Of a DNA stretch of 64,000 bases, positions 2,357-56,817 are shown in pieces. The position numbers and the translations under genes were made by a program. The notes beneath the pieces were generated by a model, which was not told the origin of the DNA, did no database searches, and saw only the letters and a list, made by a program, of their open reading frames with translations. Numbering within the stretch: position 1 is the first letter of the stretch; each line of letters begins with the position of its first letter. The stretch is from Candidatus Methanomethylophilaceae archaeon (GTDB lineage Archaea > Thermoplasmatota > Thermoplasmata > Methanomassiliicoccales > Methanomethylophilaceae): positions 44,201-108,200 of the forward strand of contig CAVIJO010000002.1 of assembly GCA_963643445.1 (NCBI GenBank). The letters run 5' to 3'.

Positions 2357-3030
2357 AGCGGCACCAGCACCCCGCCGCCGTATCTCCTGCAGGGAACCGA
2401 CGGGCCTCCGCGGAAAGGCATGACCCTGCGTATGGCATCCCCCGACAGAAGATTGTCTCTGCATTCGGCCTCGCCGCAGTCGTCGGGAGTCAGCAGAAGA
2501 CTCTTCCCGTCCGCACTCACCCGGACAGAATAACGTCCGGTGCGGAATTCCGAGGACAAAAGACCGTCGGGTGTGTTCCTCACGGTCGGACACGTCTCCC
2601 TCCCGAGCTGTACGTCCATCTTTTCCGTCAGGGCCTCTATCCTCCTCTCATACTCCTCCGCCGTCCTTTCGTAGATTTCCTTGGGGACCGCCTGCATCTC
2701 CGCAATCGCAGCGGCCGCCTCATTCCTGCATGTGTTCCAGAGGACCTCTGCAATCTCCTTCTTCTGATCCATGCAGAGTTCCATGAAAAATGACGCATCT
2801 ATCTTTCTGATAGCCCTTGCGAAGTAGTTCCCCATCCCGTAAGGATTCATTCTCAGAGAACAGAACCACGTCTCCCCGGGAGAAATGACGCCTTCGCTGG
2901 CCCTGTCGCGGAGAACGGCCACCCCCTTGTAGCGGCCGGAAACGTTTCCCATCCGATCGACAGCGAAGGAGACCGCAGCCACTGTGTCGAAATGTGCCAG
3001 ATACGGATCCCGGGGCGGTTCGGATCTCAT
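2353..3030 (-). CDS. Hypothetical protein
   Basis: 225-aa ORF; ATG overlaps the NYN gene stop (ATGA); no family recognised. Confidence 0.6.
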   Translation of the reverse strand: MRSEPPRDPYLAHFDTVAAVSFAVDRMGNVSGRYKGVAVLRDRASEGVISPGETWFCSLRMNPYGMGNYFARAIRKIDASFFMELCMDQKKEIAEVLWNTCRNEAAAAIAEMQAVPKEIYERTAEEYERRIEALTEKMDVQLGRETCPTVRNTPDGLLSSEFRTGRYSVRVSADGKSLLLTPDDCGEAECRDNLLSGDAIRRVMPFRGGPSVPCRRYGGGVLVPL

Positions 3031-3590
3031 GCCTCCTCACCTGCCGGGTCCGCCTGCGTCCTGTGCGCAGGCATGATGACGGGCAGGGAATCGAGCTCGC
3101 GGAACAGATCTCCCGCACGGATCACGGACTGACTGACGGACGACCTGAAGGCCGCCACCTCCACCCTCTTCCCGGCGGACTGCACATGTTCTATCGCAGG
3201 GATGAAGTCCCTGTCCCCGGAGACAATAAGGGCGGTGTCGAAGTGATCCATGAGCGCATGGGTGACCATGTCGCAGGCCAGACATACGTCGACCTCCTTC
3301 TGGACGTTTCTGTTCGGATCGCACGATTCCCTCACGACAACTCTGAATCCCAAATACTCCAGTCTGTCGCGGAGCCGTTTCGAGGGATCCTCGTATCCGT
3401 AAGGCATCCTCGCATCGTAGACGTAGGCCGCTACGAGATTCCTGTTTCCGGCGAGTCCGTTTACCAAGCCGCACAGGTCGACGGTGGCGTTTCCGCCGTC
3501 GCCTACGGCATCCGATGATCCGCTGAGCACATTGCGCAGGTCGATGAAAGCCATCAGCCTGTCTTTTCCGCATCCGGTAGTCAGAGACAT
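3027..3590 (-). CDS. NYN-domain (LabA/PIN-like) ribonuclease
   Basis: AFIDLRN, QKEVDV, SGDRDF motifs and GKRVEV. Confidence 0.88.
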   Translation of the reverse strand: MSLTTGCGKDRLMAFIDLRNVLSGSSDAVGDGGNATVDLCGLVNGLAGNRNLVAAYVYDARMPYGYEDPSKRLRDRLEYLGFRVVVRESCDPNRNVQKEVDVCLACDMVTHALMDHFDTALIVSGDRDFIPAIEHVQSAGKRVEVAAFRSSVSQSVIRAGDLFRELDSLPVIMPAHRTQADPAGEEA

Positions 3591-3641
3591 ACTCTGAAGG
3601 ACCTACCGGATGCATATAAAGCACGGATACTACATGCAGTA

Positions 3642-4877
3642 TTACTGTTTCTCACGGGCCTCCGAAGGGATATTGAAACCCTTCAGGTCCATGCCGCGCT
3701 TCACGAACACCGCCCACAGGGCGATGTAGATGACCGTTGACATGGCGATCAGCGCCGCGATTCCGAAGACATAATCCTTCCACGGAAGGGTGGAGAGGAT
3801 CATTCCCGCGCATCCGATCATGAAGAACACGAAATTGGAGAGGGACGAGACCGCACCGCTGTCCCCGTCATGGCTCGCCATCAATATGCCGAGTCCCCAC
3901 GGGCGCACCGTCATGGTCGAGAACATGCAGATCGCGAAGCAGATGAAGAATGCATACCATCCGACATCTCCGACGAGAAACATGGAGACTGTACTCACGG
4001 CGCTGATGGCCGGGAACAGCAGCACCTTGCGGCGGCTGGGAGTGTTCTTGGTGAGTTTGTTGATGATGATCATCGCCACCGTGCCAATTATCAGCGTTGC
4101 GGCGAGAAGGACGGAATAGACCGTCTGTCCCAGACCGAACATATCCTCGTAGATGTAGGACGAGACCGAGAGATACGCCATGAACGGCATGTTGAACAGG
4201 CACGTCATTATGGCGAATATCAGGAAAGAAGGGGCTTGGCAGAGCTTCTTCATACCGCTCATGCTCTCGCGGATGCCTCCGGCGATCCTCTCCTCCTTCG
4301 GAAGAGTCTCATCAAGCAGCAGGGACAGGAAGAGACATATCAGAGATACGGCTGCGGGGGCGATAAAGGTGGATCTCCATCCCCACGCCGCAATCATCCC
4401 GGATCCGATGATGGGTGCCAGAAGGGGCCCGAGAACCCCGACGATGGCTACTATGTTGAGGACTTTCAGACGGGCAATTCCCTGATAGCAGTCTTTCACA
4501 AATGCGACCGAAAGGGTCATCGCCGCTCCGGCACCGATGGCCTGCAGAACCCTCAGGGCGATCAGAGTCTCGACACTGTGCACGAATGCACACAGAAGAG
4601 TTGTGACAGTATATTCCGCAAGGGAGAGGATAAGGGGCATCCTCCTCCCGTACTTGTCCGTGATCGGACCGAGGAGGAAGATGGCGATGGCCATAGCGAA
4701 CATGAATCCGTAGAGGATCATGTTCATGATCGCCGCCGTTGTTCCGAATTCCGTTACCATGTCCGGAAGCGCAGGAAGGAACATATCTGTAGATATGGGA
4801 CCGAACGCCCCCAGCAGTATGATCAAGACCAGGAATGATCCCGAGTTCAGACGCCGCTGACCGTTCATTGCCGACAT
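3642..4877 (-). CDS. MFS drug-resistance transporter, Bcr/CflA (DHA1) type
   Basis: TDMFLPALP, GPITDKYGRR motif A, LRVLQAIG, GPLLAPIIG; about 12 TM segments. Confidence 0.9.
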   Translation of the reverse strand: MSAMNGQRRLNSGSFLVLIILLGAFGPISTDMFLPALPDMVTEFGTTAAIMNMILYGFMFAMAIAIFLLGPITDKYGRRMPLILSLAEYTVTTLLCAFVHSVETLIALRVLQAIGAGAAMTLSVAFVKDCYQGIARLKVLNIVAIVGVLGPLLAPIIGSGMIAAWGWRSTFIAPAAVSLICLFLSLLLDETLPKEERIAGGIRESMSGMKKLCQAPSFLIFAIMTCLFNMPFMAYLSVSSYIYEDMFGLGQTVYSVLLAATLIIGTVAMIIINKLTKNTPSRRKVLLFPAISAVSTVSMFLVGDVGWYAFFICFAICMFSTMTVRPWGLGILMASHDGDSGAVSSLSNFVFFMIGCAGMILSTLPWKDYVFGIAALIAMSTVIYIALWAVFVKRGMDLKGFNIPSEAREKQ

Positions 4878-5364: not shown

Positions 5365-6170
5365 TAAGACTGCCGTCCCAGATCGATCCCCGAAAGGATC
5401 TTCTCCCTGTAGGCCCCGGCCTCCTCCTCCGTACCCGCGAGCAGGAGGAACTTCGTCTTCTCCAGGATCTCCTCGTCCACATAGGCGCCTGCGACGCGGG
5501 CCATGAACAGCCCCGGCATGAAGTCCCAGATCTTGTTCACGAAACGGATATGTATGTCCGTCCTCCCCGATGCGATGTATGCGAAATCCACGCAGGCGGC
5601 ACCGAACATCCTGACGCGCGCCACCTCATCCTTCATGGCGCCGATGATCTCATAATGCAGATCCCTCCACACCTGTTTCTTCCTGGAAAAATCCCCCGTC
5701 GACACGACGGCCTTCTTCAGATCGGTATTCCTGCGGGGATGCACCGGAACCCCGTTGAGTTTCACTCCCCCGGCCTCGGTCGCCGTGAACATCTCGCCGC
5801 GGACGGGCAGGTATATGACGGACATGACAGGCTTCCTGTCCTCCATCAGGACGATCTGCGTCCCGAACATCGGGATGCCGTGTTCGAAGTTCAGGGTGCC
5901 GTCGATGGGATCGATAGCCCAGGTCCTGGCACATGTGAGGGAGTTCTCCCGTCCCTCCTCCGCGATGAAGAGGTCTCCCGGGAACTGCGCCGATATCGCA
6001 TCGATTATGCTCTTCTGTGCGGCCTCATCCGAAACGGTGACGAGATCATAGGAACCGACGGCATTGGTCTTCTCCTCGGACGGCCCCGCCCCGGAACCGA
6101 CGTACATGTCGCCCGCGGCACGGACGGCGGAGACCGCCGCCTCCAATTCACGGGAATACGGATCTTCCAT
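5361..6170 (-). CDS. Inositol monophosphatase family protein (paralogue 1)
   Basis: LVT..D, AEE, WAIDPIDGTLNF, RMFGAAC, WDF motifs. Confidence 0.9.
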   Translation of the reverse strand: MEDPYSRELEAAVSAVRAAGDMYVGSGAGPSEEKTNAVGSYDLVTVSDEAAQKSIIDAISAQFPGDLFIAEEGRENSLTCARTWAIDPIDGTLNFEHGIPMFGTQIVLMEDRKPVMSVIYLPVRGEMFTATEAGGVKLNGVPVHPRRNTDLKKAVVSTGDFSRKKQVWRDLHYEIIGAMKDEVARVRMFGAACVDFAYIASGRTDIHIRFVNKIWDFMPGLFMARVAGAYVDEEILEKTKFLLLAGTEEEAGAYREKILSGIDLGRQSY

Positions 6171-6203: not shown

Positions 6204-6872
6204 TCAGGCGAAGGGGATGATTCTGCGGAACACGGAGGTCGCACGGATCCCGGGGAACTCCTCCCCCGAACCGTCCCCGGCGAAATACCAGTGTCCGTAT
6301 CCGATCTCCCTCAGAACGGATTCCAGGATTTCCGCAGACTGCGGGATATCCGATCCCGGAGAATACCTTTTCCAGGATCTGGGACAGTCGCATGTCAGCA
6401 CGACGTCCACCTTCCCGCCGGCCTTCCGTACGTTGCCGCAGGCGACATTCGCATCCTCCCGCGACGGATCCTGCTCCGGCCACCAGTCCCAGTATCTGCC
6501 GGCATCCGTACGCCCCGGAACGGTCATCCCGCCCATTGTCAGCACCGTCCTCCCGCCGAGTCTGAAGACCTGCCCGCGGGTGAGATGAATCAGCCCTCTG
6601 GACACCGTATGGACGGTGCCTCCGTTCCACGGGAACGGGGGATAATCGCCTATGAGGTCGTAATCGTCGCCGGGGCCGTCGAGGAAAAGAACGGAACAGG
6701 GGAGAGACCTGTATTCCTCCGCAATGCGGCGTAGATCGGCGCGGGGTGCGAACACCCCGCTGTCCCCGAGAATGACCAGAAAGTCGTTCTTGGACATGGA
6801 TGCGACGGCCGGATCGGACTCCAGACCCGAAAGACCCAGAGGCCCGGAGAACCCGGCCGCCGCTGCGAACAT
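6204..6872 (-). CDS. Calcineurin-like metallophosphoesterase homologue with degenerate metal ligands
   Basis: NDFLVILGDSG, LFLDG, IHLTRGQV, MGG, WWPEQ.PS, KVDVVLT, HWYF pattern; start placed at ATG6872 just after the TerC stop. Confidence 0.7.
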   Translation of the reverse strand: MFAAAAGFSGPLGLSGLESDPAVASMSKNDFLVILGDSGVFAPRADLRRIAEEYRSLPCSVLFLDGPGDDYDLIGDYPPFPWNGGTVHTVSRGLIHLTRGQVFRLGGRTVLTMGGMTVPGRTDAGRYWDWWPEQDPSREDANVACGNVRKAGGKVDVVLTCDCPRSWKRYSPGSDIPQSAEILESVLREIGYGHWYFAGDGSGEEFPGIRATSVFRRIIPFA

Positions 6873-7874: not shown

Positions 7875-9749
7875 TCATTCGGATTCCGGGCCGCCCAGAA
7901 CCTTCCATACGGTGAATATGTTCCTCCCGGCGAAGTACTTGTAATCCATGTAGGTGACCAAGTTTTTGATCATGTGGATCCCGAAACCGCCGATGGGCCA
8001 GTTGCCGACGTCTTCGTCGATCTCGATCTCGTCCCTGCTGATAGGGTTGAACGCATCCGCGCTATCGGCAAACGTCAGCTTCATCTCGTTCCTGCGGGCG
8101 CTGCAGTATACGGTGACCTCCCCGTCCGAATCTTCGTAGGCGTGGTCGCAGATGTTGACGAATATCTCCTCCGCAACAATCTCCATCTTGAGGATCTCCT
8201 TCTCGGGAAAACCGTGTCCCGTCAGCACCTCCTCTATGAACGCATTGACCTTTCCGAGTTCCTCCGCCTTCCCGGGGACGGTGAGACTGCGGTAGTCCGG
8301 ACGGCGGACAATGAAACACAGCATCGTTATATCGTCCGACTGCGGCTGCTTCCCCGCAAACTCCCTCACGGCACTGCGGACGTTCTTCACGATGCCTTCC
8401 GCATCCTCTCCCGCAGAAGCGTCGAGGGTCTTCTCGAGGCGCTCTCTTCCGAACTGCTCCCCCCCGGCGTTGAAAGCCTCGTTCACCCCGTCGGTATAGC
8501 AGAAGAACGTATCCGTGTCGGATACCGAGACGGTATCGGTCTTGTAACGGACGGCTTCATTCACCCCGATCATCAGCCCCTTCTTCACGGGGAGTTTCCC
8601 GAACTTCCCGTCGGAATGCCTGACGTACGGCGGAGGGTGCCCGGCATTGGCGTACTGCAGGGTCCCGGTGTCGGAATCGTATACGCCCATCCATACGGTG
8701 ACGAACTGCTCCGCGGCGTTTCTGGCACATACCTCCCTGTTCACTGCGGAGAGGATGCGCCCGGGGTCGTTGTGGAGCATCGATGCCGCCCTTATGGACC
8801 CCATGACCCCCATCATCATCAGCGAGGCGGGAAGACCCTTGTCGGATACGTCGGCCGTGACGAACGCAGTGAGGTTCCTCCCGATGGAGAAGCAGTCGTA
8901 GAAATCGCCGGCCACCTCCGCGGCCGGCTCCATCATCCCGTAGATGTTCAGGGACCGGGTGATGGGGAATTCGGCGGGAAGAGCCGCCTGCTGTATGTCC
9001 TTCGCAAGACCCAGATCATGTTCTGTGCGCTTGGCGTTCTCCTGGGCCTCAATCAGGAGCACATACTTGTAATACAGAACGACCGCAAGACATCCGAACA
9101 AGAGGACGGCTGTACAGGACCACCCGTAGAGCATATGTGCATAGGGATCCCCGGCGATCCCCGCGTCGTCGAGCAGCGAAGGGATGCAGACCGCATACAC
9201 TGCAGCCACCGCCACAGGGACCAGATACCAGAGGAACCGGCTCTTCCCGAGGGTGCTCAGCAGGGCGGACAGCGCCCCTCCGACGAGCAGGAGGATGAGA
9301 TAGTACCACTGGAGATCGTAGTAATCCGGTATGACAAGTATGTGGACGAATATCGTAAATGCGGTCACGGCGGCGACATACAGGGGCCCGCTGCACATAC
9401 CCGTCAGCATGAGCCCGACGAAACCGCTCTGGAACAGCGTGCTGTCGTTGCTCCCCATGACACCGTTCAGGACCGACAGCCCCGTCATCAGCGCAAGGAA
9501 GGCGGCCTTGTAGTACCAACCGGAGAACCCGGGCTCCGTCAGCGCCCTGTACATGGGGCTGCGGAGTATGAGATACATGATCAGCACGGTGACGATGGTC
9601 CAGGCGACCCCGCTGCTCATGTAGTACGAGATCGCGTATGCGGGGTACTCCTGCATATCGAGATTATACGTCACGTACGCGGCGGCTGTGATCAGCAGCG
9701 TCGCGATGATAAATAGATTCTGCAGGGCAGATGCCAGTTTTCCGTCCAT
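7875..9749 (-). CDS. Membrane-bound SpoIIE/RsbU-type PP2C phosphatase fused to an RsbW-type HATPase kinase domain
   Basis: Multi-TM N-terminus; AGDFYD, ADVSDKG, NAGH, YTDGVNEA, DDIT; C-terminal EEIFVNICDHAY, DSADAFNP, GGFGIHMIK. Confidence 0.9.
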   Translation of the reverse strand: MDGKLASALQNLFIIATLLITAAAYVTYNLDMQEYPAYAISYYMSSGVAWTIVTVLIMYLILRSPMYRALTEPGFSGWYYKAAFLALMTGLSVLNGVMGSNDSTLFQSGFVGLMLTGMCSGPLYVAAVTAFTIFVHILVIPDYYDLQWYYLILLLVGGALSALLSTLGKSRFLWYLVPVAVAAVYAVCIPSLLDDAGIAGDPYAHMLYGWSCTAVLLFGCLAVVLYYKYVLLIEAQENAKRTEHDLGLAKDIQQAALPAEFPITRSLNIYGMMEPAAEVAGDFYDCFSIGRNLTAFVTADVSDKGLPASLMMMGVMGSIRAASMLHNDPGRILSAVNREVCARNAAEQFVTVWMGVYDSDTGTLQYANAGHPPPYVRHSDGKFGKLPVKKGLMIGVNEAVRYKTDTVSVSDTDTFFCYTDGVNEAFNAGGEQFGRERLEKTLDASAGEDAEGIVKNVRSAVREFAGKQPQSDDITMLCFIVRRPDYRSLTVPGKAEELGKVNAFIEEVLTGHGFPEKEILKMEIVAEEIFVNICDHAYEDSDGEVTVYCSARRNEMKLTFADSADAFNPISRDEIEIDEDVGNWPIGGFGIHMIKNLVTYMDYKYFAGRNIFTVWKVLGGPESE

Positions 9750-11479
9750 CAGACCGTCACCGTCAGGTTATTCAGTTTCACCGAATAACTGTATTCTATG
9801 TTCTTCGCGGCCGCACGCACCACCCTGATACCGAAGTGCTTCCCGTCATCGGCCGTTATAGGATTGAATCTGATGCCGTCGTCCCTCATACGGAAGATCA
9901 CGTCGTCCCCGTCCTTCGCGATGCGTATGTCGATGAAATGCTCCTTTCCGTCCGTGAATGCGTATTCCACAACGTTTCCCGCCATCTCCTCGATGCAGAG
10001 CGCGATGCGGTCCGCCTTGTCGCGGGAGATACCATGCTCTGCGCAGATGTCCGAGATCCGCTCCGTGAGCCCAGAGACCGCCTCCATCCTGTTGGGGATG
10101 GACAGTTCGCAGACCGTGTCCGCGGAGAAGGCGCCGGCGGGTGCGATGATGAAGTCCTCCGCATGATGCGGAAACTTCCCTGTCTTCACTCTGATGAACA
10201 CCGCAATCGTAAGCACGGAGAGGATGTCTGCGAGCACGAAGGACAGCCACACCCCGTCGAGGCCCATGACAGGGGCGAGGGCGAAGGACACGAGGATGAC
10301 ATACAGGGCGCCTCTCGAGAGGGAGATAACGTTCGACATCATCAGATTCCCCATCGTCTGGTACATATACAGGAAGATGAGACAGACGGTGGACGTGGGC
10401 TGGGACAGCGCGAACAGCCTCAGGCACCTGACCGCCAGATCGAGGTCCCCGCCGTCGGCTATGAACATCCTCGCCACAGGTTCGGCGAAGATTATCAGCA
10501 CGGCCGCGGCTGCGGAGGACACGGCCGCTCCAGATTTCAGAGTGACGCGTATCGTATCCGTGACGGCCCTCCTGTCCCTCTCCCCGAAGAAGATTCCGCA
10601 CATGGTGGCGACCATGAGCCCGTATCCGGTGGAAATAGCTATCAGAAACTGATACACATTGGTCTGCACCGAAAGTGCCAGCACCGCGGCGGAGCCTCCG
10701 AGGGACAGCAGGAATGCGTTGAGTACGAGGTTCTTGACAGTCTGGGAACCCCTGTTTATCGCAGTGGGGAGACCCGCCATGCAGATGTCCTTCAGTTCCT
10801 TCCCGCATCCCGAGGGGGAGCAGAACCTCATCATGCGCTCCTTTCTCCTGAAATGGGTGAGGGCGACGGCGAGTCCGATGACGTTCCCGAGCATGACGGA
10901 GAGCCCGATACCGAAAAGACCCAGATCCGTGGATGATGCGCTGTATACCGCAGCAGCGGTGTTCACGATGATGACCACCACCATCGAAATCAGCGAGATC
11001 CTCTGATTGCTGTCCATCCTCAGATAGATTAGCAGATTCTGCAGGAGGAGGAACGGCACCGCCGAGATCCCGAGTCCGCGGATATAATCGGCCGCCATCC
11101 CTTCGATGCTGTCCTCTGCGCCGAACAGATCCGACAGGGGATCGGCGAACAGGAGGCAGAATGCCGTGAAAACGGCACCCACGGCGGCGGATGCCAGTGT
11201 CGTCACGGTGTAATTCAGCCGTACGGCCGCCATATCTCCCCTGCCGATGTGGTTCGCGCACCTTATGGAGCCGCCGTTGCTGAAGATTCCGGCGGCCGCG
11301 CCCAGGAGGATGAACACCGGCGAAGCGAGACCGAACGCCACGAGGGCGTCGGACCCCAGCATCTGTCCTGTGATCAAACCGTTGATGACCATGCTCAGCG
11401 TGGCCGTGAGCGTCACCAGTATGGTGACGGCCAGGTGGCTGTGCAGGACCTTTTCGATCAGGTATGTGTTTGTATGCAT
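9749..11479 (-). CDS. MATE-family transporter fused to a C-terminal RsbW-type HATPase domain
   Basis: 12-TM MATE pattern (GSDALVAFG, DLGLFGIGL, MGLDGVW), then EEMAGNVVEYA, DDGIRFNP, HFGIRVV. Confidence 0.88.
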   Translation of the reverse strand: MHTNTYLIEKVLHSHLAVTILVTLTATLSMVINGLITGQMLGSDALVAFGLASPVFILLGAAAGIFSNGGSIRCANHIGRGDMAAVRLNYTVTTLASAAVGAVFTAFCLLFADPLSDLFGAEDSIEGMAADYIRGLGISAVPFLLLQNLLIYLRMDSNQRISLISMVVVIIVNTAAAVYSASSTDLGLFGIGLSVMLGNVIGLAVALTHFRRKERMMRFCSPSGCGKELKDICMAGLPTAINRGSQTVKNLVLNAFLLSLGGSAAVLALSVQTNVYQFLIAISTGYGLMVATMCGIFFGERDRRAVTDTIRVTLKSGAAVSSAAAAVLIIFAEPVARMFIADGGDLDLAVRCLRLFALSQPTSTVCLIFLYMYQTMGNLMMSNVISLSRGALYVILVSFALAPVMGLDGVWLSFVLADILSVLTIAVFIRVKTGKFPHHAEDFIIAPAGAFSADTVCELSIPNRMEAVSGLTERISDICAEHGISRDKADRIALCIEEMAGNVVEYAFTDGKEHFIDIRIAKDGDDVIFRMRDDGIRFNPITADDGKHFGIRVVRAAAKNIEYSYSVKLNNLTVTV

Positions 11480-11482
11480 CGC

Positions 11483-11779: not shown

Positions 11780-13476
11780 TCTTCTTCCTCCCTGTCGACA
11801 AGTATTCTGAAGAAACGGAGCTGGGCTTCGTTCATGATTATCTTAACCGGTTTTATCTGGGTGGATGCGCCGCCCATCATGATCTGTTTGTCCCTCCAGA
11901 GGGCGTAGGTCTCGTCCTGGAGATAGTGGGACACCACGGGCCCCGTGAGCCTCCTCTCGAACTTGTACTCGAGCATGGGATTGGCCCTGATGAGCTCCTT
12001 CTGCAGGCATGCGGACAGCTCCTTCAGGTCCGCCTTCGGACGTCTGGGACATTCGATGAAGAACCTGTAGCAGGACGGCGTCATGTCGGTGTCGGGGTAC
12101 ACGCAGAAGTCAGTGTAATCGAAATCGAGGTCCTTCGCGGTAGCGTCCACCGCGGCCCTGAGGGCGGGCTCGTACGTCTTCTCCCCGTTGAGGTTGACGC
12201 ACATGTCTATGCGGTAGAGGTATTCCATCGTCGGAAGGCTGTTGTACATCTTCACGAAACGGACGGCATCGCGGGTCCTGTAGCGGTACAGTCCCGACTG
12301 GGTCGTCAGTATCACCTCGTACTCCTTCCCGATCTCCACCTCCGACACCGTGCATGTCTTCGACGGATCCTCCTCGCCGAGGGGGAGGAACTCCAGGAAC
12401 ATCGTGTTACCCAGGGGAGCCGAGTCCGGCGTGTCGAAATCGTACGGGGCGGAGATCGCACCTTCGGATGCCACGATCCCGATCATGACCACCGGGATGT
12501 CTTCGGAGACGAAGTTCTCCCTGAGTTTGCGCAGATATGCAGAGAAGGTCCCGGTGCTCACACCCATGACGAACGTGAGGTTCGGCCATATCCTCTTGGC
12601 TATGGTGTTGCTGAAACCCTCCGAGAATATTTTTCTGAGTTCCTCCGCCCTCTCCGGCATCGGGACGAGCTCGGATTCCAGCTTCGCACGGACGGAGTCG
12701 GACATCTTGACGGAGGGGTCGATCTTCCCGGTCTCTATGTCCCTGCAGAGCATCTCCCAGTTGCCCTGGATGTAATGGAACAGGTCCAGGACGAACGTGA
12801 TGAACGTGGTCTGGAGACTGGATACGTCCCTGTACGCGAGGCCGTATCTGGCATGGAGATACCTGCTGTCTGTCTCCTTCTCGGGACATACGGCCTCCTC
12901 GGGGGAAGTGAACATCTCCGGCTGCATCATCTGCCAGTCGTACACGCACTGGCCGGATACGCCGTAATATCTCTTGGGAGGAGTCCCGACGACGGCCCTG
13001 GCGGACGCCTCCGCGACGGAGAGCGCCTTCCCTTTCAGGAAATCGGTACCGAAACGTTTCACTGCCATCCCGTAGGGCCCTGCGAAGGCGTAGTCGAGCA
13101 GGTATCCCATGGATACCGAGGACATCGGGATCTTCTTGGGATTGCCCATGGTCCCGGAGGACCTGTTGTACTGCGCCACCCCGTACACGGAATGGAGATG
13201 TTCCTCCTTCCCCGTGAGTTCGCGGACCACGTATTCGGCGTAATCGTCGTAGACTGTGAGCGGGACCTTCCTTTTGTAGTCCTCCACCGTTCTGATACCG
13301 GAGAACTCCATCTTCCTGCCGTATTCGGTGTCCTTATTGTCGTCCAGTATCCTGAAGAGGAGTTCCTCGCTGATCCTCTCCGGATCCTTGGAAAAAGCCT
13401 CTAGGTCGTCCATCGCCTTCCTGCCGCGGTCTGCGGCCGAAAGGTTCATCTGGACGGTTTTCTCCGTTTCTGCCAT
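11776..13476 (-). CDS. GH3-family acyl-adenylate / acid-amino acid ligase
   Basis: NKDTEYG...KVPLTVYDDY, SSGTMGNPKKIP, VASEG, TTQSGLYRYRTRD, LNGEKT, QIKP. Confidence 0.88.
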   Translation of the reverse strand: MAETEKTVQMNLSAADRGRKAMDDLEAFSKDPERISEELLFRILDDNKDTEYGRKMEFSGIRTVEDYKRKVPLTVYDDYAEYVVRELTGKEEHLHSVYGVAQYNRSSGTMGNPKKIPMSSVSMGYLLDYAFAGPYGMAVKRFGTDFLKGKALSVAEASARAVVGTPPKRYYGVSGQCVYDWQMMQPEMFTSPEEAVCPEKETDSRYLHARYGLAYRDVSSLQTTFITFVLDLFHYIQGNWEMLCRDIETGKIDPSVKMSDSVRAKLESELVPMPERAEELRKIFSEGFSNTIAKRIWPNLTFVMGVSTGTFSAYLRKLRENFVSEDIPVVMIGIVASEGAISAPYDFDTPDSAPLGNTMFLEFLPLGEEDPSKTCTVSEVEIGKEYEVILTTQSGLYRYRTRDAVRFVKMYNSLPTMEYLYRIDMCVNLNGEKTYEPALRAAVDATAKDLDFDYTDFCVYPDTDMTPSCYRFFIECPRRPKADLKELSACLQKELIRANPMLEYKFERRLTGPVVSHYLQDETYALWRDKQIMMGGASTQIKPVKIIMNEAQLRFFRILVDREEEE

Positions 13477-13773: not shown

Positions 13774-13841
13774 AAATCTGTACCGCAGGAAGGATGGCGG
13801 GAGGGACGAGGTTTTATCTGACAGTAACCGAATGGAGAATC

Positions 13842-14321: not shown

Positions 14322-14396
14322 GACATCTGGCACATCGTAAAAACGGACTGCGCCCCCGAAATAAGGAGAGCGGACGGGGGCGCGGGGAAAAAAGTT

Positions 14397-20422: not shown

Positions 20423-20815
20423 ATGAAGTTCCTCGAAGGGAAGAGCGAACTTACGCTCGCATGGATCGTCCTGATCCTCGGAGGTGTGTTCCAGATCGGA
20501 TGGTCCATCGGCGTCGATTACACCGAGAAGTTCACCGTGTGGACCTGGGACATCGTCACCATCGTGTTCCTCGCGCTCAGCATGATATGCATGGAGTGGC
20601 CCATGAGGCACGGCATCGCATTCACCACGGCCTACGCCGTATGGATCGGTGTCGGTGTGAGCCTGACCGTCGTCGTCTCGGCCCTGCTGGGTCTCGATGA
20701 CTTCAACTGGCTCATGGGAGTGTTCCTGATAGTCGTCATCGCGGGAGTCGTCGGTCTGAAGGCCACGCCCGTGGAGTATCTGGACCCTCTGCCGGAAAAG
20801 AAGGAAAAGGAATGA
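20423..20815 (+). CDS. SMR/DMT family small multidrug transporter, subunit 2
   Basis: AWIVLILGGVFQIGW, TAYAVWIGVG, GVVGLK. Confidence 0.85.
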   Translation: MKFLEGKSELTLAWIVLILGGVFQIGWSIGVDYTEKFTVWTWDIVTIVFLALSMICMEWPMRHGIAFTTAYAVWIGVGVSLTVVVSALLGLDDFNWLMGVFLIVVIAGVVGLKATPVEYLDPLPEKKEKE

Positions 20816-20853: not shown

Positions 20854-20933
20854 GATTCCCCGATGTCGCGCACGTATGTGCCAGCATAGGGAATTATGCG
20901 GCCCTGCGGATAACCTGCGGGACCGAAGGTGTT

Positions 20934-23374: not shown

Positions 23375-23507
23375 GAGAGGCAGGCCAGATGTCCGCGGAC
23401 AGTCTGCCGGAGCAAACATCTGGCACATACATTCCGTGCAATAACATAGATTGTTTCAAATACCGAGTAGAAATATGATGCATCCGTAAGAAAAAGGGGG
23501 ACACGCC

Positions 23508-39954: not shown

Positions 39955-40015
39955 TTTTTCCATCTGGCACATATGCGGTTCCAACTTGGATACAGGCGCT
40001 GCGCCGTCTAAAATG

Positions 40016-41482: not shown

Positions 41483-41569
41483 AATCCGCATCTGGCACAT
41501 TGTTTTTCAAACAGGAATCCGCAGAAATAAACAATGATGCGGGCCCGTCCCTGCGGACGGGCGGGTGCA

Positions 41570-46856: not shown

Positions 46857-47662
46857 GACGCGTAGCTGTCAAAATCGCCTATCTGGGTGACGGATTCAGC
46901 GGTTCCCAGATACAGCCCCCGGAAACAGGTCTCCGCACTGTCGCGGGAGAGATATTGGACAAACTCCTCCTCGTAGACCATGTGCCGGAGGACAGGATAG
47001 ACCTGCGTTTCTCCAGCCGCACCGATTCGGGCGTCAGCGCCCTCGGGAACGTGATTGCGTTCTATACCGAATTCAAGGATCTGGGTCTTCTTCTCCAGGC
47101 TCTCAACTCCGTATCGTACGGAGTCTATTACACCGCCGCTGCGGAAATATCCGACACATTCAATCCGAGGATGGCCGACAAACGCTACTACAGATACGTC
47201 ACCCCGTCCAAAAACATAGATCTGGGTCGTTTCACGGAGGCGGCGAAGCTGTTCGAAGGGCATCATGATTTCAAGAGATTCGCCAAGAATGAGACAGGAA
47301 GGTCCACCATCATGGCCATCGATTACGTGAAGGTGCATGAGGAGAACGGGGTCATCTCGACCGACTTCTGTGCCAATTACTTCCTCTGGAACATGATCCG
47401 CAGGATAATGGCCGCCGTCATACAGGTGGGGAACGGCATGTCCGACCTGGACGACGTCAAGGAGGCACTGGCCGGAAAGGACACCACGTTCGGACTCGCC
47501 AAACCGTACGGCCTCACCCTGATGGACGTCACATTCCCGGATCTGGAATTCAGAAGACCTGACACGTGCCCGTACACCAAACGCATCGAACACGACCTGT
47601 ACACCGATGCCGTGACAGCGAATTTCCACAGGGCCCTGAAATACCCGGAGCGACCGATATGA
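46853..47662 (+). CDS. truA: tRNA pseudouridine(38-40) synthase
   Basis: KIAYLG..F.GSQ.QP, SRTDSGVSA, GHHDF..F, FLWNMIRR. Confidence 0.94.
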   Translation: MRRVAVKIAYLGDGFSGSQIQPPETGLRTVAGEILDKLLLVDHVPEDRIDLRFSSRTDSGVSALGNVIAFYTEFKDLGLLLQALNSVSYGVYYTAAAEISDTFNPRMADKRYYRYVTPSKNIDLGRFTEAAKLFEGHHDFKRFAKNETGRSTIMAIDYVKVHEENGVISTDFCANYFLWNMIRRIMAAVIQVGNGMSDLDDVKEALAGKDTTFGLAKPYGLTLMDVTFPDLEFRRPDTCPYTKRIEHDLYTDAVTANFHRALKYPERPI

Positions 47663-48249
47663 GTTTCAAAGAAGACATAGAAGGAGCTGCTGCCGCCCTG
47701 GCGGATCTCGAAAAGACCCAGGAAGAGGTATTCGTACAGTCTAGGAAAATCATCAGGAAAACGAAGACCGCCATCCACCTCATACATGAAGGAAAACGGG
47801 ACCCCGAACTCCTCGATTCGATATCCGGAGATTTGGCGGTCATGGCGGAAAGCGCCGCCGGCCATCCGCAGCTGATGTACGGACAGGCCGCCGAAGATGC
47901 AATGGCGGAGTTCGCGGAAACCGTCATCTACGACTATGCATCCCGCGGAGAGGAGATACCTTCTTACAGCATCCTCGATGTCACTCCGAGTGCCTGGGTC
48001 ATGGGTCTCGCCGATGCCGTGGGAGAACTAAGAAGGGATCTTCTGAACGACCTGATGAAAGACGACATCGACGGCGCCGGAAGGATCTTCTCCTCCATGG
48101 AAACACTCTCGGACGCCCTCATGACATTCGATGTGAAGGATTCCGTAATCCCGATAAGAAGGAAACAGGACATAGCCAGGGGAATTATGGACCGTTCCCG
48201 CACAGACCTTTCCACCGCACGGATCATGTCCCGTTACGGGAACAGATGA
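47659..48249 (+). CDS. Translin/TRAX-like (C3PO) protein
   Basis: SRKIIRKTKTAI..IH, EFAE, GLADAVGELRR, RRKQD.AR. Confidence 0.88.
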   Translation: MSFKEDIEGAAAALADLEKTQEEVFVQSRKIIRKTKTAIHLIHEGKRDPELLDSISGDLAVMAESAAGHPQLMYGQAAEDAMAEFAETVIYDYASRGEEIPSYSILDVTPSAWVMGLADAVGELRRDLLNDLMKDDIDGAGRIFSSMETLSDALMTFDVKDSVIPIRRKQDIARGIMDRSRTDLSTARIMSRYGNR

Positions 48250-49114: not shown

Positions 49115-52100
49115 CTGCGTGCGAACACCCCCCTCTTGGACCCGGTCCAGATTATCAGGAGCAGGACCAGGACGGTCAGTACGAAGAGGACCCAGAAGGT
49201 CGTTCCGATCTTCTTGCCCTCGTCGGATGCGCCTCCGTCGGAGACGGAACCGCTGTCGAGGGACAGGTCGGCCTTCTGTGCCTTCAGATCCGCTGCGGAC
49301 ACCGTGCTGCCCGAAACCGTCAGCTCGGAGCAGTCGGTCGACAGGGCGACAGTGTTGCCGTCCAGATCCTCGACGGAAATGCCGAACTTCACATCGGGTA
49401 CGGAGTTGCTCTGTCCGTCGGTGTTGATCACGGCGACATACACCGTCGTGGTCGAGTAACCCTTCAGGAGGAAGGGTCCGTTCGACAGGCCGCTGAATAC
49501 CATGTATCCCTCGCTGTCCATCCAGCAGACCGTCCAATCGGCAGCGGAACCGACGAATTCCGCAGTGACGGTCGCCATCTCCGCCCAGAGGTTGGAGTTA
49601 GCGAATGTCACTGCATACTTGTAGACGGAACCGGCCGCTATGTCGGCGCTTGCGCCGTCGGCAGAGGTGACATTCACCTTGGTTCCCGAATCGTCTCCGG
49701 ACCTTTCGTAGCAGTCGGCGGGGACGATGATGTCCGCCACTTCATTTCCGGCCGTGTCGGTGATGCAGACGTACATGTCTTCGCTGCCCGCACCGACGGT
49801 GGCCGCATCGAAGTGTCCCTTGACGGTGACGGTTCCGGTGTATCCCGGAACGATCGACAGCGCATAGGTCTCATCGAGGACGAACGCAGAGCTTCCCTTG
49901 ATCAGGTAGGTCAGGTAGAAGTCGGAATTGTTGGTGATGGTGAACGTCATCTCTCCGCTGCCGTCGGACTTGAACGACCCGTCGATATCGTCGTAATCGA
50001 CAGACACGTCGTCTCCCCAGTCGTACACGGCATCGGTGGTGACGACGGAGAAGTTGCAGGTGACATCCTTGTCCGCGACCTCCACCGTCTTGTCGGCGTC
50101 GGTGTCGAACGTGTATATCTTGCCGTCGTTCTCATACTCGAGTCCTCCGACCCTCATTGTGACGGTTCCGACATTCTCGGGCACCTCGAACTCGTACTCC
50201 CCGTCACTCACATCCACGTAGAATGTGTAGGAATTGGAGTTGAAGGTGTACTCGGTCTCCATCGTTCCGCTGATCTTCGCACCGACGGAACCGGAGACCT
50301 TCACGGTATCGTAAAGGGTCGTCAGGTCGACGGATATGCTGGTAGGAGTATCGGCGAAGACTATAGGAGATACCGCAACGAGTCCGTCGGAATTCTTTAC
50401 ATCGAAGGTGTAATCGAAGTTCTGCTGGAGGTAATACTTCACGGTGGCGACGTTGGTGGTTTCGTCGACGGTCTTCTCTCCCTTCTCGTACTCGCCTGTG
50501 TCTCCGTTGGAATCCTTGAGGGCAGAGATATTCAGGGTGTCCCCGTCGTTGTACCTGACCTCGGCGGTGAGACACTCGAATCCGGACAGGTCGTCGAGGA
50601 CGATCTTGTCATGCCCGAGGTAGAGAGTGAAGCTCTCGGCGGAATGGTATCCTTCACCGAGGAGGGCCTCGGTGTCCACATACCACTTCCCGGCATACAT
50701 GTCCATAGAGGCCGCATCGGCCCAGTCTGTATACTCGTCGGATTCCTTGTACTTCACCTTGAGGGGGTATCCGGTACCGTTCTTCACCGAAATCTTCGCG
50801 ACCTGCAGTTTATCCGACTCGGCGTCGCTCAGTCTGAACGTCCAGGTGTTGGAGGTGTTGGAGGTCACGTCGTCTTTGCTGTAGGTCTGATCCTCGGTAG
50901 CCTTCAGGATGCCTCCGTCCGAGGTGGAATCGAACGCCTTGAGGGTGATGGTTATGCCGGAGTTCTCGGGAACCCAGAATACTGCGCGTCCGGAGGTGTT
51001 GGTCAGCATGGGGACGGTGTAGACCGCATCTCCCACGGTGATCTTCCCTTCGACTCCGAAGTATGCGAGGTACTTCGAGGATCCGCCGCTGGCGGTGTAG
51101 GTGTTGACATACTGTCCCACGGAGTATGCCGTACCCATACTGATGTCCGCATTGTCGCTGTCGGCGGAGACGGTGAGGTTCGCCAGAGAGACAAGGGAAC
51201 TGCCGTTGTAAGCATACTGCACAAAGGTTCCGGCGGGCAGATAGGCGGTGTACTTGCCGTCGCTGTCGGTCGTGTAGACGAACACGTTGGAGCCGTCGGT
51301 GAAGTTGACGGTCGCACCGGAGACGGTGTCTCCGTCGGCGTTCTTCACGATTCCGGAAACAGTGTAGAAGTCGGTTCCGACGAGGGTGATGCCGCTCTCG
51401 TAGGTTCCGCTGCCGTAGTAGATCTTGCCGTTCTCGATGACGCAGGCGGTGTAGGTGTTGATCGCCCCTCCGGGTGCTGGCACATATGCTTTGTCAGCGG
51501 ATGCCGCGACACCGGTGTATCCGATGGCGGAGACCGTGGGCACAGACCCGGCGGTGTTGCTGATAGCTATCTCCTTCGCGTCGAAGAGGGTCAGGCTGAT
51601 GGTCTTGGAACCGCCGGATGTCACGGAGACAGTGGAGGTGGAGCTGAATGCATAGTTCTCGACCGTCTTCACCGCGTAGGTTCCGACGGGGACGGAGATC
51701 TTTGCGGATCCCGCTTCGGCGGCACCCGCGAACTCCATTCCGGTGGAGACGTCGTACACCGTAACGGATCCGGTGTAGCTTCCTCCGTAGGGTTCGGTGA
51801 TACTCACGGTGACCGTTCCGGAAGGCACGGAGACACGTGCGTTGACCATGCTGTTGACAAAGGTCACATCTGCGGTGGTGACGGAGGTTCCGTCCGCGGA
51901 GATGAGGTCGGCGGAATACACATCGGGGACCATGTCGGAGACGGTGAACCTTCCGTCGATGACATCGACCTGGTATGTCCTGCTGCATGATTTCCCGGTG
52001 AATTTGATGTAACCGTCGTACTCGTAGAGGGAACCGTCGCTCTCGATGACGGTGGAACCCTCGATGTCCACGGGGTCGACATCCAGGGAGTAGTACCCAG

Positions 52101-54924: not shown

Positions 54925-55055
54925 TCTCGATTCTCCGTAACGATATCGAATGCGCGAACATGCCCGACTTGTTATTTATAGGTTTACGGGTGCGCGTTTT
55001 TAATATAATAATATAAAAGAGAGGTTGGATGGATTAATCCGACAGCTTCCGTAGA

Positions 55056-55703
55056 TTACAGTACCGTGCGGATCTCGTCAGCCACGGCGCCGGCGGCCGC
55101 CGCGGGGTCATCGGCCCTGTAAATGGCCCTTCCGACGATGACGTAGTCGGCGCCCGCGCTTATGGCGGCGGAGGCGGAACCTCCCTGGGCACCCACTCCG
55201 GGGGAGAGAATCTCCCTGTCTCCTATGACTTTCCTGATTGCGGCTATCCTCTCAGGACGCGTCGCAGGGGCGATGAAACCCTTCACCCCGCACCTTACGC
55301 CCACAAGTGCCAGATCCTCCGCGTTGGGTGCGGTGAACTCCTGTCCTCCGGGGTGGCTCATCTCCGTGACGGCGTAGATGCTCCCTCTTCCTGCGGCGGT
55401 GTCGACGGCCTCCTTCATGGAATCGCTGCCGGTGAATGCGTGGACGATGACCGCGGAGGCACCCCTCCCGAGGGCCCCGTCCACGATGAGATGTACGGTG
55501 TTGGGTATGTCGGCCACCTTAAAATCGCAGATGACGTCCGAACGCTTCGAAAGTTCGGTGATCATCCCGGGGCCGGCAGAGAGTACCAGAGGCCAGTTGA
55601 TCTTGATCGCATCCACTGTGCCAGACACGGAATCCGCTACCGCAAGTGCCTTCTCCCTGTCGGTCTCGTCGAGTGCGAGTATCAGACGGCTGCTCTTTCT
55701 CAT
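55056..55703 (-). CDS. pyrF: Orotidine-5'-phosphate decarboxylase
   Basis: LILALD, DFKVADIPNT, EMSHPG, SPGVGAQGG, IVGRAIY. Confidence 0.97.
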   Translation of the reverse strand: MRKSSRLILALDETDREKALAVADSVSGTVDAIKINWPLVLSAGPGMITELSKRSDVICDFKVADIPNTVHLIVDGALGRGASAVIVHAFTGSDSMKEAVDTAAGRGSIYAVTEMSHPGGQEFTAPNAEDLALVGVRCGVKGFIAPATRPERIAAIRKVIGDREILSPGVGAQGGSASAAISAGADYVIVGRAIYRADDPAAAAGAVADEIRTVL

Positions 55704-55755
55704 CGGTGTTGCCATCGTCCGAACATTTTTAAAACCTTGCCATAGATTGTGCGTC

Positions 55756-56817
55756 ATGTCCTTCGTAAGGTTCGATTCCGGGTCCGCCGCGAACGGCGCG
55801 CTTGCCAAAGGCTGCGATTTCTGCATCGAGGGGGCCAAAATGGTCCTTTTCATCACCGGACGCTGCAAAGCAGGCTGTTTCTACTGCCCGATCTCGGCCG
55901 AGAGGAAGGGACGGGACACCGTCTACGCCAACGAATGCCCGGCCGCCAACGACGACCAGGTGATCGAGGAGGCGGAAGCCATGAACGCCCTGGGAACCGG
56001 CATCACCGGCGGGGACCCTTCGGAAAAAATGGACAGGACCGTCCACTTCATACATCTCCTGAAGAGCCGTTTCGGAAAGGACCACCACATCCACATGTAC
56101 ACGTCGGTCATCAGTCTTGAGAATGCGAAGATTCTCGAGGAGGCGGGGCTCGACGAGATCCGCTACCACCCCCGCGAAGATCAGTGGACGGAGATGGAAA
56201 AAACCGAACTGGAACTTGTGATCCGTTCGGTCGGAATGGATGTCGGAATAGAGGTCCCTGCACTCCCCGGGAAGGAGAAGGAACTGACGGCACTCATCAG
56301 GTATGCCGTCGGGGCCGGAGCGAAATTCGTCAACCTCAACGAACTCGAGTTCTCCGAGACCAACTGGGACATGATGGAGAAGTACGGTTACGAAGTGAAG
56401 GACGATCTCTCTGCGGCGGTCCTCGGATCGGAAGAGACCGCAGTCAATGTCATGAATGCGCTGCCCGATGCGCCTATACACTTCTGTTCATCCGCTTTCA
56501 AGGACGGGGTGCAGCTCAGGAACAGGCTGAAGAGGAGGGCGGAGAACACCGCCCGCGAATACGATGTGGTCACCGAAGACGGAACCGTCCTGAAGGGCAT
56601 CGTCTACGCGGACGACCTCGATGCGGCGGTCTCGCTGCTGAAGGGAGATTACGATGTGCCAGACGAACTTATTTCTGTCGACTGCGACAGGAACAGGATC
56701 GAAACGGCGTCGTGGGTCCTCGACGAGATCGCGGAGGAGCTCCCATATAAATGCTACATCGTGGAGGAATACCCCACGAAAGACCGTCTCGAGGTCGAAA
56801 GGACTCCGCTGAACTGA
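55756..56817 (+). CDS. Archaeal radical SAM protein
   Basis: GCDFC..GAKMVLFITG.CKAGCFYC (CxxxCxxC), GITGGDP, LNELEFSETN. Confidence 0.9.
   Translation: MSFVRFDSGSAANGALAKGCDFCIEGAKMVLFITGRCKAGCFYCPISAERKGRDTVYANECPAANDDQVIEEAEAMNALGTGITGGDPSEKMDRTVHFIHLLKSRFGKDHHIHMYTSVISLENAKILEEAGLDEIRYHPREDQWTEMEKTELELVIRSVGMDVGIEVPALPGKEKELTALIRYAVGAGAKFVNLNELEFSETNWDMMEKYGYEVKDDLSAAVLGSEETAVNVMNALPDAPIHFCSSAFKDGVQLRNRLKRRAENTAREYDVVTEDGTVLKGIVYADDLDAAVSLLKGDYDVPDELISVDCDRNRIETASWVLDEIAEELPYKCYIVEEYPTKDRLEVERTPLN

Follow-up and report, generated by a model that had tools for sequence, protein, structure and literature searches.

Why does one short, non-palindromic word recur so often along an archaeal chromosome? 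We considered this question for a 64,000-nucleotide stretch of DNA from a Candidatus Methanomethylophilaceae archaeon (contig CAVIJO010000002.1), which we call the window. The window corresponds to G000:C2:44201-108200, and the whole G000 assembly comprises 1,418,041 bases in 45 contigs and is rated 99.9% complete. An initial annotation of the window had flagged the 10-mer TCTGGCACAT, its 9-mer core CTGGCACAT, and the 12-mer CATCTGGCACAT as highly over-represented, and had offered three explanations: a DNA-uptake sequence, a signal like Chi or the FtsK-orienting polar sequences (KOPS), or a site for a nucleoid protein. We find that the over-representation is real and genome-wide, and we tentatively favor a link to the transfer of DNA between cells.

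The window contains 9 copies of TCTGGCACAT, versus 0.10 expected from dinucleotide-preserving shuffles, and none of 100 shuffles had 9 or more copies. The 9-mer CTGGCACAT occurs 13 times (0.46 expected). If up to two mismatches are allowed, there are 32 matches to CATCTGGCACAT (4.74 expected), and the degenerate family CTGGSWCWT has 37 sites (4.24 expected; Table 1). The positions in the initial annotation are correct: TCTGGCACAT lies on the + strand at 8721, 14326, 23419, 28586, 34243, 39963, and 41491 and on the - strand at 2992 and 56654; the 9-mer has four additional copies (5926+, 20876-, 35999-, and 51477+); and the four 12-mers, as well as the two variants that match CATCTGGCACAT at 10 of 12 positions (19865+ and 31103-), are where they were said to be.

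Across all of G000, we found 219 copies of TCTGGCACAT (122 on the + strand and 97 on the - strand; p = 0.10 for the imbalance). Markov models of order 3 or order 5 predict 2.25 or 16.5 copies, and in an unbiased ranking of all words, TCTGGCACAT was the most over-represented 10-mer. By word length, there are 325 9-mers, 219 10-mers, 140 11-mers, and 64 12-mers. In intergenic DNA alone, TCTGGCACAT has 82 copies, versus 0.38 expected. On average, a 10-mer occurs every 6.5 kb and a family site every 1.6-2 kb, and copies of TCTGGCACAT are scattered over the contigs in proportion to their length. The clearest exception is contig C28, which has no family sites (6.8 expected). Fractions of coding and intergenic copies are approximate because our gene calls, from our own codon-log-odds caller (1283 genes, 87% coding), include some errors. 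For example, the methyltransferase ORF (open reading frame) at 39379-39954 of the window was missed, even though it is supported by Pfam.

The specificity of the word is sharp. In G000, single substitutions inside CTGG..C bring a word down to near its expected frequency. The changes that are tolerated are G at position -1 (66 copies), G at position 5 (55 copies), and T at position 8 (58 copies). All eight words of the form CTGG-S-W-C-W-T are enriched, and the highest ratios of observed to expected counts (naming each word by its last five bases) are 38 for CACAT, 30 for CACTT, 20 for GTCTT, 9.3 for GTCAT, 5.7 for GACAT, and 4.5 for CTCTT. Two forms are preferred in spacers: ATCTGGCACAT and ATCTGGGTCAT. 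The forms that end in CTT are almost wholly coding (108 of 120 copies of CTGGCACTT are in genes) and may be the nearest versions that the protein tolerates, with Leu replacing His. Among 111 intergenic copies, the consensus is (A)CAT-CTGGCACAT-(T). Upstream of it, positions -11 to -8 form an A/T-rich patch, where the share of A/T is 62-81% in these copies and 53-65% in 209 coding copies. In other words, there are an unconstrained form, approximately (A)CATCTGGCACAT(T), which follows one helical turn after the A/T-rich patch; a second type, ATCTGGGTCAT; and a degenerate core, CTGG-S-W-C-W-T. That some positions accept either S base and others either W base would fit a word that is read in duplex DNA.

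Beyond these features, we saw little conservation around the word. In 25-bp flanks of 320 aligned copies of the 9-mer, the only signals were T at -1 (214/320), A at -2 (153/320), and weaker ones. There was also no excess of hairpins or terminators: 61-nt DNA folds gave -7.05 kcal/mol for the 111 intergenic copies and -7.03 kcal/mol for 300 random windows from spacers (Mann-Whitney p = 0.79). Since the flanks are not conserved, there is no structure, and orthologous sites differ by point changes, we rejected a dispersed repeat, such as a repetitive extragenic palindrome (REP) or a miniature inverted-repeat transposable element (MITE). Separately, TCCGCA/TGCGGA half-sites are enriched in the intergenic DNA of G000 (424 versus 230 expected). 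Many are arranged as short palindromes or as longer inverted repeats that lie near the motif, and sometimes around it (for instance, at 41460-41540 of the window).

Although the word is enriched 2.9-fold outside of genes (84 of the 219 copies, or 38%, lie outside called genes, versus 13.2% of bases), most copies are coding, with 69 in the sense orientation and 66 antisense. Sense copies favor one frame: 58 of the 69 read T-CTG-GCA-CAT, and 90 of 117 coding sense copies of the motif are in the single preferred frame. Antisense copies use all three frames. The initial annotation had proposed that protein sequence does not explain the coding copies, and a codon-aware null agrees. When we shuffled synonymous codons within genes (30 shuffles), we obtained 24.5 ± 2.8 coding 10-mers, versus 136 in the actual genome. 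So the excess is neither confined to the window nor a consequence of protein sequence or codon usage, which we rejected as a cause.

The word has also altered the proteome. G000 encodes Leu-Ala-His 108 times, versus 45 expected from amino acid frequencies, and 90 of the 108 are encoded by CTG GCA CAT (2.3 expected from codon usage). Similarly, CTG GCA CTT encodes 87 of 269 occurrences of Leu-Ala-Leu (1.6 expected), and CTG GGT CTT encodes 58 of 231 occurrences of Leu-Gly-Leu (1.0 expected). Tripeptides that correspond to antisense copies are inflated as well (36 Met-Cys-Gln versus 4.6 expected; 68 Lys-Thr-Gln versus 23.8 expected). We then compared 211 coding sites of the 9-mer to G010, a member of the same genus that lacks the motif. 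We could map 162 of these sites, and the residues were identical at only 20 of the 162. (Given a median proteome identity of 68% between G000 and G010, we would, by our arithmetic, expect about 31% of triplets to be identical.) Where the sense frame reads Leu-Ala-His (71 sites), G010 also has Leu-Ala-His at 8 sites, and these use other codons. The excess of Leu-Ala-His, Met-Cys-Gln, and Lys-Thr-Gln, the codon shuffles, and the mismatched residues in G010 imply that the word is imposed on the DNA, by way of point substitutions, and that protein sequence suffers somewhat as a result.

Placement follows constraint. Depending on the length of the word, 35-66% of copies are intergenic (42 of 64 for the 12-mer), and the density in spacers is 0.83 per kb if the flanking genes are convergent, 0.59 if divergent, and 0.48 if in tandem. 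Within genes, the position of the copies is uniform. The 10-mer's density is 0.054 per kb in genes that share at least 70% identity with G010, 0.135 in core genes that are less conserved, and 0.164 in genes that G010 lacks. Sites also avoid each other at short range: 16 neighbors are within 100 bp (50.8 ± 6.5 expected) and 110 are within 300 bp (142.8 ± 9.7 expected), with a slight excess within 1 kb (419 versus 388.9 ± 10.5). The initial annotation had noted that 12-mers lie close to stop codons. This is true of three 12-mers in the window, which begin 2, 6, and 6 nt past the stops of ORFs that end at 14321, 39954, and 41482, but it does not extend to the genome: 22 of 98 intergenic copies are within 30 nt of a 3' end, versus 17.9 ± 2.9 when copies are placed at random within those spacers. 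We therefore rejected a fixed position after stop codons.

The word is not oriented with replication. The + strand carries 9 of the window's 13 copies, but the complete chromosomes of three congeners are balanced. In G012 (a single 1.67-Mb contig), 179 of 180 copies divide into 88 on the + strand and 91 on the - strand; its cumulative orientation walk covers an unremarkable range (permutation p = 0.33), and its runs are close to random (p = 0.088). Hand tallies gave 44+/49- for G018 (by quarter, 9/10, 10/12, 9/12, and 16/15) and 28+/26- for G015 (10/9, 8/6, 4/5, and 6/6). Thus, the polarity of a KOPS-like or classical Chi-like signal is absent. Among the three explanations in the initial annotation, the unpolarised pattern agrees with an uptake sequence, and the idea of a polarised signal does not stand.

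The word is patchy within the Methanomethylophilaceae. Across genomes for 21 species of the genus, the 10-mer with the core CTGGCAC (the CAC type) ranges from 232 copies in G004 down to 4 in G010. The GTC type (TCTGGGTCWT) ranges from 402 copies in G017 down to 7 in G010, and the two types rise and fall together. G007 has another dialect: it has just 7 copies of the CAC type and 13 of the GTC type, but it has 127 copies of TCTGGCTCWT (the CTC type), versus 18 for a control, and this word heads an unbiased ranking for 212 kb of G007. For all three types, counts in G003 and G014 are close to background. In the entire G010 genome (1,496,212 bases), after masking an array repeat with about 50 copies, we found no dispersed hyper-abundant word: the highest ratio of observed to expected at k = 10 was 8.8, versus 97-100 in G000. 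(G010 has about 50 copies of a CRISPR-like repeat at L112 and L142.)

Among 138 genomes from the family that are at least 80% complete, the other enriched genera are g23 (up to 113 copies), g25 (mostly 23-40 copies in 1.0-1.3 Mb), g22 (19-38 copies), and some of g20 (up to 75 copies). Genera g21, g18, and g19 are at background. In 195 kb of G147 (from g25), with a CRISPR-like array masked, the top dispersed words were CTGGCACTT, TCTGGCAC, and CTGGCACAT, and none of these were among the top dispersed words of G038 (from g13). Both genomes have arrays of their own: G147 has 75 copies of a repeat with a 66-bp period (L341:8842-13727), and in G038 a 228-240-bp unit is repeated in tandem about 110 times across some 35 kb (L355-L357). 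Twelve genomes from six other families of the order have just 1-8 copies of the CAC-type 10-mer, which is background.

Individual sites turn over while the density is kept. In the locus from the closest relative (L001), three of the four window sites that can be aligned are exact and the fourth has one mismatch; the motif at 23417 is exact in L001 even though its flanks have diverged. More distant loci differ in sequence at the window's sites and have their own copies elsewhere. Viral contigs were uninformative: among 80 of the loci that matched in a scan with a 14-mer, 45 had a single family site. The richest viral locus, L257 (35% G+C), has seven copies of CTGGCACAT in 20 kb, but four of the seven are in a longer conserved context, CTACA.CTGGCACAT, and three of those four have A instead of T before the core. 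This is a different, flank-conserved repeat and not the motif that we studied.

Several of these properties are shared with the DNA uptake sequence (DUS) of Neisseriaceae, which is read by the minor pilin ComP. The DUS is also a non-palindromic 10-12-mer with an excess of around 100-fold or more, is equally frequent on both strands, is enriched in intergenic DNA, has coding copies in tolerated frames, and has species dialects that differ at a few positions. The archaeal word differs in its lower density, in its two coexisting types, in lacking an excess of inverted pairs at terminators, and in that we know it from sequence alone; furthermore, we did not find ComEC (PF03772), DprA (PF02481), or ComP in G000. 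The uptake signal sequence (USS) of Pasteurellaceae is like our word in having a 9-mer core with a helically phased A/T-rich flank, two subtypes within the family, preferred frames, a distortion of peptide content, and short-range spacing that is more even than chance. In the archaeal word, the A/T patch is one-sided and weaker, and the signal has been lost from several congeners. HIP1 of cyanobacteria is another very abundant short word that pervades coding sequence and varies across lineages, but HIP1 is palindromic and linked to a methyltransferase, while our word is asymmetric and none of three main families of DNA methyltransferase gave a match above threshold. The initial annotation knew of no such signal in this group of archaea, and we found none either: in the literature that we could search, which did not cover subscription journals, the accessible text says nothing about this word, about uptake sequences in archaea, or about a connection of Methanomassiliicoccales with ComEC or of Methanomethylophilus with natural competence.

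We suspect, without holding it to be established, that the motif is a short recognition signal in double-stranded DNA that has been multiplied by point substitutions and not by the insertion of repeats. The excess, the duplex-type word with its phased A/T patch, the strand symmetry, the placement according to constraint, the frames, the spacing, the dialects and losses, and the turnover of sites together lead us to lean towards a signal of the DUS/USS kind that is spread by biased DNA transfer (molecular drive). A protein on a route of DNA transfer between cells of the lineage would bind the word in preference to other sequences. DNA might be taken up on this route by a type IV-like pilus and a translocator, or else be packaged or enter in some other way. 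DNA that carries the word would be brought in and recombined more often, and new copies would spread through the population wherever their cost is low. Shifts in the protein's specificity would lead to the species dialects, and if the protein were lost, the word would decay. That transfer bias is the force, and that some machinery reads the word, is what we infer from these patterns.

Several observations weigh against this preferred reading. Two abundant types coexist in most genomes, which a single receptor would explain only if its specificity is degenerate. Inverted pairs, which occur at terminators for the DUS and which the initial annotation expected if the signal is DUS-like, show no enrichment (within 300 bp, 50 pairs are inverted and 60 are in tandem). 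The largest gaps between sites are not recognizable foreign DNA but housekeeping operons: the five largest contain genes for ribosomal proteins, hydrogenase, ribonucleotide reductase, SRP54, FttA, LeuRS, and FtsZ, so we rejected the idea that motif deserts are mobile elements. The motif is as frequent in genes that G010 lacks as it is in core genes, so accessory genes are not depleted. Because of these two results, we could not demonstrate that recently acquired DNA is depleted, as would be expected. Also, no uptake, transformation, or gene transfer is on record for this organism.

The machinery is another difficulty. The search for competence genes that the initial annotation had suggested was successful in part: a T2SSE pilus ATPase is present, but ComEC is missing from a nearly complete genome, as is DprA. 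According to a study of archaeal transformation (PMC10133366), ComEC homologs are not known from archaea with natural competence, and the transformation of Methanococcus maripaludis requires a type IV-like pilus, an OB-fold membrane protein, and a TctA-like protein. The pilus ATPase is in G000 and in 20 of the 21 genomes from the genus, and the TctA-like protein is in G000 and in all 21. But the homologs are also in G010, G003, and G014, which lack the motif, so they do not account for its distribution. By inspection only, there is no OB-fold gene beside the tctA-like gene of G000. We also compared the 1283 predicted proteins of G000 to G010 with tblastn; 176 had no match and 67 had a weak match. 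We scanned 114 of these 243 against Pfam (79 + 35), and 30 of them against PADLOC as well, with proteins under 150 amino acids and a few others falling outside the scan. Among the 114, no receptor candidate had a fitting distribution.

Two other candidates were considered as the reader and rejected. A PolA-LigA-endonuclease IV cluster (G000:C22:662-6130, in L176) encodes an NAD-dependent DNA ligase, a family-A DNA polymerase with a 5'-3' exonuclease, and an endonuclease IV-like TIM barrel, but it is in just 4 of the 21 genomes (G000, G004, G012, and G001). Beside this bacterial-type cluster are an SF1 helicase in two ORFs and an NYN protein. A family with AAA-ATPase_like and PDDEXK_9 domains does not track the motif. 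Its members lie at many contig ends in G000 (for example, C5:85378-87048, C11:30693-32102, C12:3-959, C23:3-878, and C40:215-1849), so this multi-copy family probably breaks the assembly; it has 16 matches in G000, 40 in G009, and none in 8 of the 21 genomes. Absent from G010 is a reverse transcriptase at G000:C43:1139-4771 (L183) that matches the defense-associated UG26 class (E = 7e-143) and adjoins an NYN-domain protein and two proteins without a known family.

The word might instead be a Chi-like site for a helicase-nuclease, which we judge to be somewhat unlikely. Linear DNA would be degraded until the enzyme meets the word and loads a recombinase, so that DNA with the word survives, recombines, and spreads it. 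A potential enzyme exists, which counts against a transfer signal: G000 has an AddAB-like operon, outside the window, at G000:C11:20604-26359 (L199:5604-11359). The AddA-like protein (1009 amino acids) has UvrD-helicase and UvrD_C domains and a C-terminal PD-(D/E)XK domain, and its best match in NCBIfam is addA_Gpos (E = 9.6e-43), which is under the curated equivalog cut-off. The gene before it encodes an AddB-like protein (909 amino acids), which also has a C-terminal PD-(D/E)XK domain. An AddB-like protein is in 136 of 138 genomes of the family. Across the order, it is in 24/24 genomes of f1, 1/1 of f2, 1/1 of f5, and 0/54 of f3, f4, f6, and f7; outside the family, it was found only in two small sister families, at 24-26% identity. 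The motif is confined to this AddAB-bearing family. NurA is the usual resection nuclease of archaea, and it was not found in G000, although the same search was positive for 4 of 4 archaeal control genomes. The pair evolves quickly (46% and 43% identity between G000 and G010 for AddA and AddB, versus a proteome median of 68%), which could track a changing target. Like Chi, the word is asymmetric, species-specific, and over-represented; E. coli's Chi shares CTGG with its core; and one site per 2-6 kb is within the range for Chi. Among the papers on archaeal AddAB whose titles and beginnings of abstracts were listed, none dealt with this family.

On the other hand, known Chi sites are mostly co-oriented with replication, and none of the three complete genomes shows such a bias. 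(The lack of polarity could be explained by two-ended breaks or by linear DNA that enters the cell, because the word would then be needed in both orientations.) The roughly 100-fold excess, the 10-13 bp of information, and the upstream A/T patch all go beyond the 5-8 nt sites that AddAB and RecBCD read in single-stranded DNA, and the S and W degeneracy suggests reading in duplex. To our knowledge, intergenic enrichment and distortion of the proteome are not features of Chi. Most importantly, AddAB is intact in the motif-free G010 (ORFs of 905 and 989 amino acids) and is also in G038, which likewise lacks a hyper-abundant word, so the presence of the enzyme does not predict the motif. (These genomes could have a short and inconspicuous Chi.) Overall, a Chi-like role fits less well than a transfer signal. 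The word is long, the excess is large, and the degeneracy is of the duplex type; the strongest objection comes from the genomes with intact AddAB and no motif.

A site for an abundant chromosomal protein that binds double-stranded DNA, with a role in the nucleoid, segregation, or self-marking that would call for a site every few kb and with sites that are kept by selection, is unlikely in our view. It would account for the sharp specificity, the S/W degeneracy, the A/T patch one turn away, the roughly even coverage of all contigs, the avoidance of close neighbors, the independence of orientation, and the intergenic copy that is exact in L001 amid diverged flanks. However, positions are not conserved beyond the closest relative, and congeners that lack the motif (G010, G003, and G014) or have another word (G007) are hard to square with an essential function. 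The site-specific nucleoid systems that we know of have tens of sites, often palindromic, and not hundreds of asymmetric sites that are forced into coding sequence. No candidate protein emerged among the G000 proteins that we scanned. It is less probable still, and we think improbable, that the motif has no function and is a by-product of a sequence-specific bias in mutation or repair, as for HIP1 or very-short-patch repair, perhaps linked to a methyltransferase. The motif was created by point substitutions and accumulates under weak constraint, and G000 and three congeners carry the PolA cluster, all of which would suit such a bias; but the cluster is in just 4 of the 21 genomes, and the motif-rich G017, G032, and G031 lack it. 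In G000, the methyltransferase families PF00145 and PF02384 had no match and PF01555 had a sub-threshold match of 46 residues (PF02086 and PF07669 were not searched). For a Methanomethylophilus strain, the accessible part of a review lists only predicted GCWGC and GATC methylases (PMC11033074). Words that are one change away from the motif are not depleted, contrary to directed repair of near-cognate sites, and the motif, in contrast to HIP1, is no palindrome. We know of no precedent for a repair bias that acts on all 10 positions. Finally, it is extremely improbable that the word is a polarised signal for chromosome architecture, a dispersed repeat, or a consequence of proteins and codons. 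The strand imbalance within the window and the single favored frame of coding copies might have suggested these; they are contradicted by the balanced orientation in complete genomes, the unconserved flanks, the lack of structure, the codon-aware nulls, and the large intergenic share.

Table 1. Motif family sites in the window, numbered from its first base. Spans in the last column are gene or ORF coordinates.
Sequence	Position	Strand	Context
TCTGGCACAT	2992..3001	-	sense inside ORF 2353-3030 (-)
CTGGCACAT	5926..5934	+	antisense in inositol-monophosphatase-family gene 5361-6170 (-)
TCTGGCACAT	8721..8730	+	antisense in SpoIIE/HATPase gene 7875-9749 (-)
CATCTGGCACAT	14324..14335	+	intergenic, 2 nt past stop of ORF 13794-14321 (+), convergent spacer before dnaJ; conserved in L001
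CTGGCACAT	20876..20884	-	convergent spacer, 20405-20815 (+) / glutamine synthetase 20934-23117 (-); one mismatch in L001
CATCTGGCACAT	23417..23428	+	divergent spacer upstream of 23640 (+); exact in L001, flanks diverged
TCTGGCACAT	28586..28595	+	sense in gene 28098-28961 (+), Leu-Ala-His; conserved in L001
TCTGGCACAT	34243..34252	+	sense in NFACT gene 32693-34648 (+), Leu-Ala-His
CTGGCACAT	35999..36007	-	junction of ORF 35354-36040 (-) and TraB-family gene 36022-36771 (-); gene call uncertain
CATCTGGCACAT	39961..39972	+	6 nt past stop of methyltransferase ORF 39379-39954 (+)
CATCTGGCACAT	41489..41500	+	6 nt past stop of 40127-41482 (+), convergent spacer
CTGGCACAT	51477..51485	+	antisense in 1937-aa ORF 49111-54924 (-)
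TCTGGCACAT	56654..56663	-	antisense in radical-SAM gene ending 56817 (+)
CTGGCACTT, family variant	2334..2342	-	
CTGGCACTT, family variant	10673..10681	-	
CTGGCACTT, family variant	30740..30748	-	
CTGGCACTT, family variant	55305..55313	-	
CTGGGTCTT, family variant (second type)	6831..6839	-	
CTGGGTCTT, family variant	9006..9014	-	
CTGGGTCTT, family variant	10916..10924	-	
CTGGGTCTT, family variant	19474..19482	+	inside thermosome gene; one copy in most related loci, so probably conserved codon context
CTGGGTCTT, family variant	25166..25174	-	
CATCTGGGTCAT, intergenic form of second type	31103..31114	-	
CTGGGTCTT, family variant	36307..36315	+	
CTGGGTCTT, family variant	41765..41773	-	
CTGGGTCTT, family variant	47081..47089	+	
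CTGGGTCTT, family variant	47713..47721	-	
CTGGGTCAT, family variant	47994..48002	+	
CTGGGACTT, weaker family variant	5521..5529	-	
CTGGGACAT, weaker family variant	12044..12052	+	
CTGGGACAT, weaker family variant	20545..20553	+	
CTGGGACAT, weaker family variant	24526..24534	-	
CTGGGACAT, weaker family variant	32316..32324	+	
CTGGGACAT, weaker family variant	43565..43573	-	
CTGGGACAT, weaker family variant	56364..56372	+	
CTGGCTCTT, weaker family variant	16234..16242	+	
CTGGCTCAT, weaker family variant	20707..20715	+	

The proteins encoded in the window are archaeal, including a split RNA polymerase (A' and A''), a thermosome, and a GatE-type amidotransferase. For the thermosome, the nearest relatives with names belong to Methanomassiliicoccales and bear the labels Methanomethylophilus or Methanomethylophilaceae; it is 99% identical to one metagenome-assembled genome and 93% identical to another that is labelled Candidatus Methanomethylophilus sp. 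At 7875-13476, the window has a run of genes that are absent from G010 or have only weak matches there: a fusion of a SpoIIE phosphatase and HATPase, a fusion of a MatE transporter and HATPase, and a GH3-family adenylating enzyme. The two fusions are unusual. The 1937-amino-acid ORF on the - strand (49111-54924) has a weak match to CarboxypepD_reg and nothing else, and several other giant ORFs of G000 (1800-3500 amino acids), as well as proteins with BspA-type leucine-rich repeats or Listeria-Bacteroides repeats, are poorly conserved in G010. The called genes of G000 end with TGA (1021 genes), TAA (146), or TAG (47). The rarity of TAG would agree with its being decoded as pyrrolysine in some genes of the lineage, which we take to be the case for this order.

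What would this word mean for these archaea? Either way, it is a sharp genomic signature that could serve in binning, in the recognition of foreign DNA, and in the design of DNA that these archaea may acquire or retain. (Parts for genetic code expansion are widely taken from one member of the genus.) If the word is Chi-like, it would be the first such site for an archaeon, and the first for an AddAB that replaced HerA-NurA. As a candidate, we put forward with some hesitation a genomic signal of the DUS/USS kind in a new domain of life. More specifically, and with greater reserve, we suggest that this may be the first uptake or transfer signal sequence of Archaea, in which case the Methanomethylophilaceae would exchange chromosomal DNA in a sequence-selective way, with a reader whose specificity has shifted (the CAC, GTC, and CTC dialects) and which has been lost from some species. 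If so, a duplex of about 20 bp that combines the A/T patch with ACATCTGGCACATT would be a direct bait for an archaeal DNA-uptake receptor or translocator. A transfer signal would also predict natural, self-preferring gene exchange in host-associated methanogens from the gut of people and animals, and the word would mark the units of gene flow within the family.

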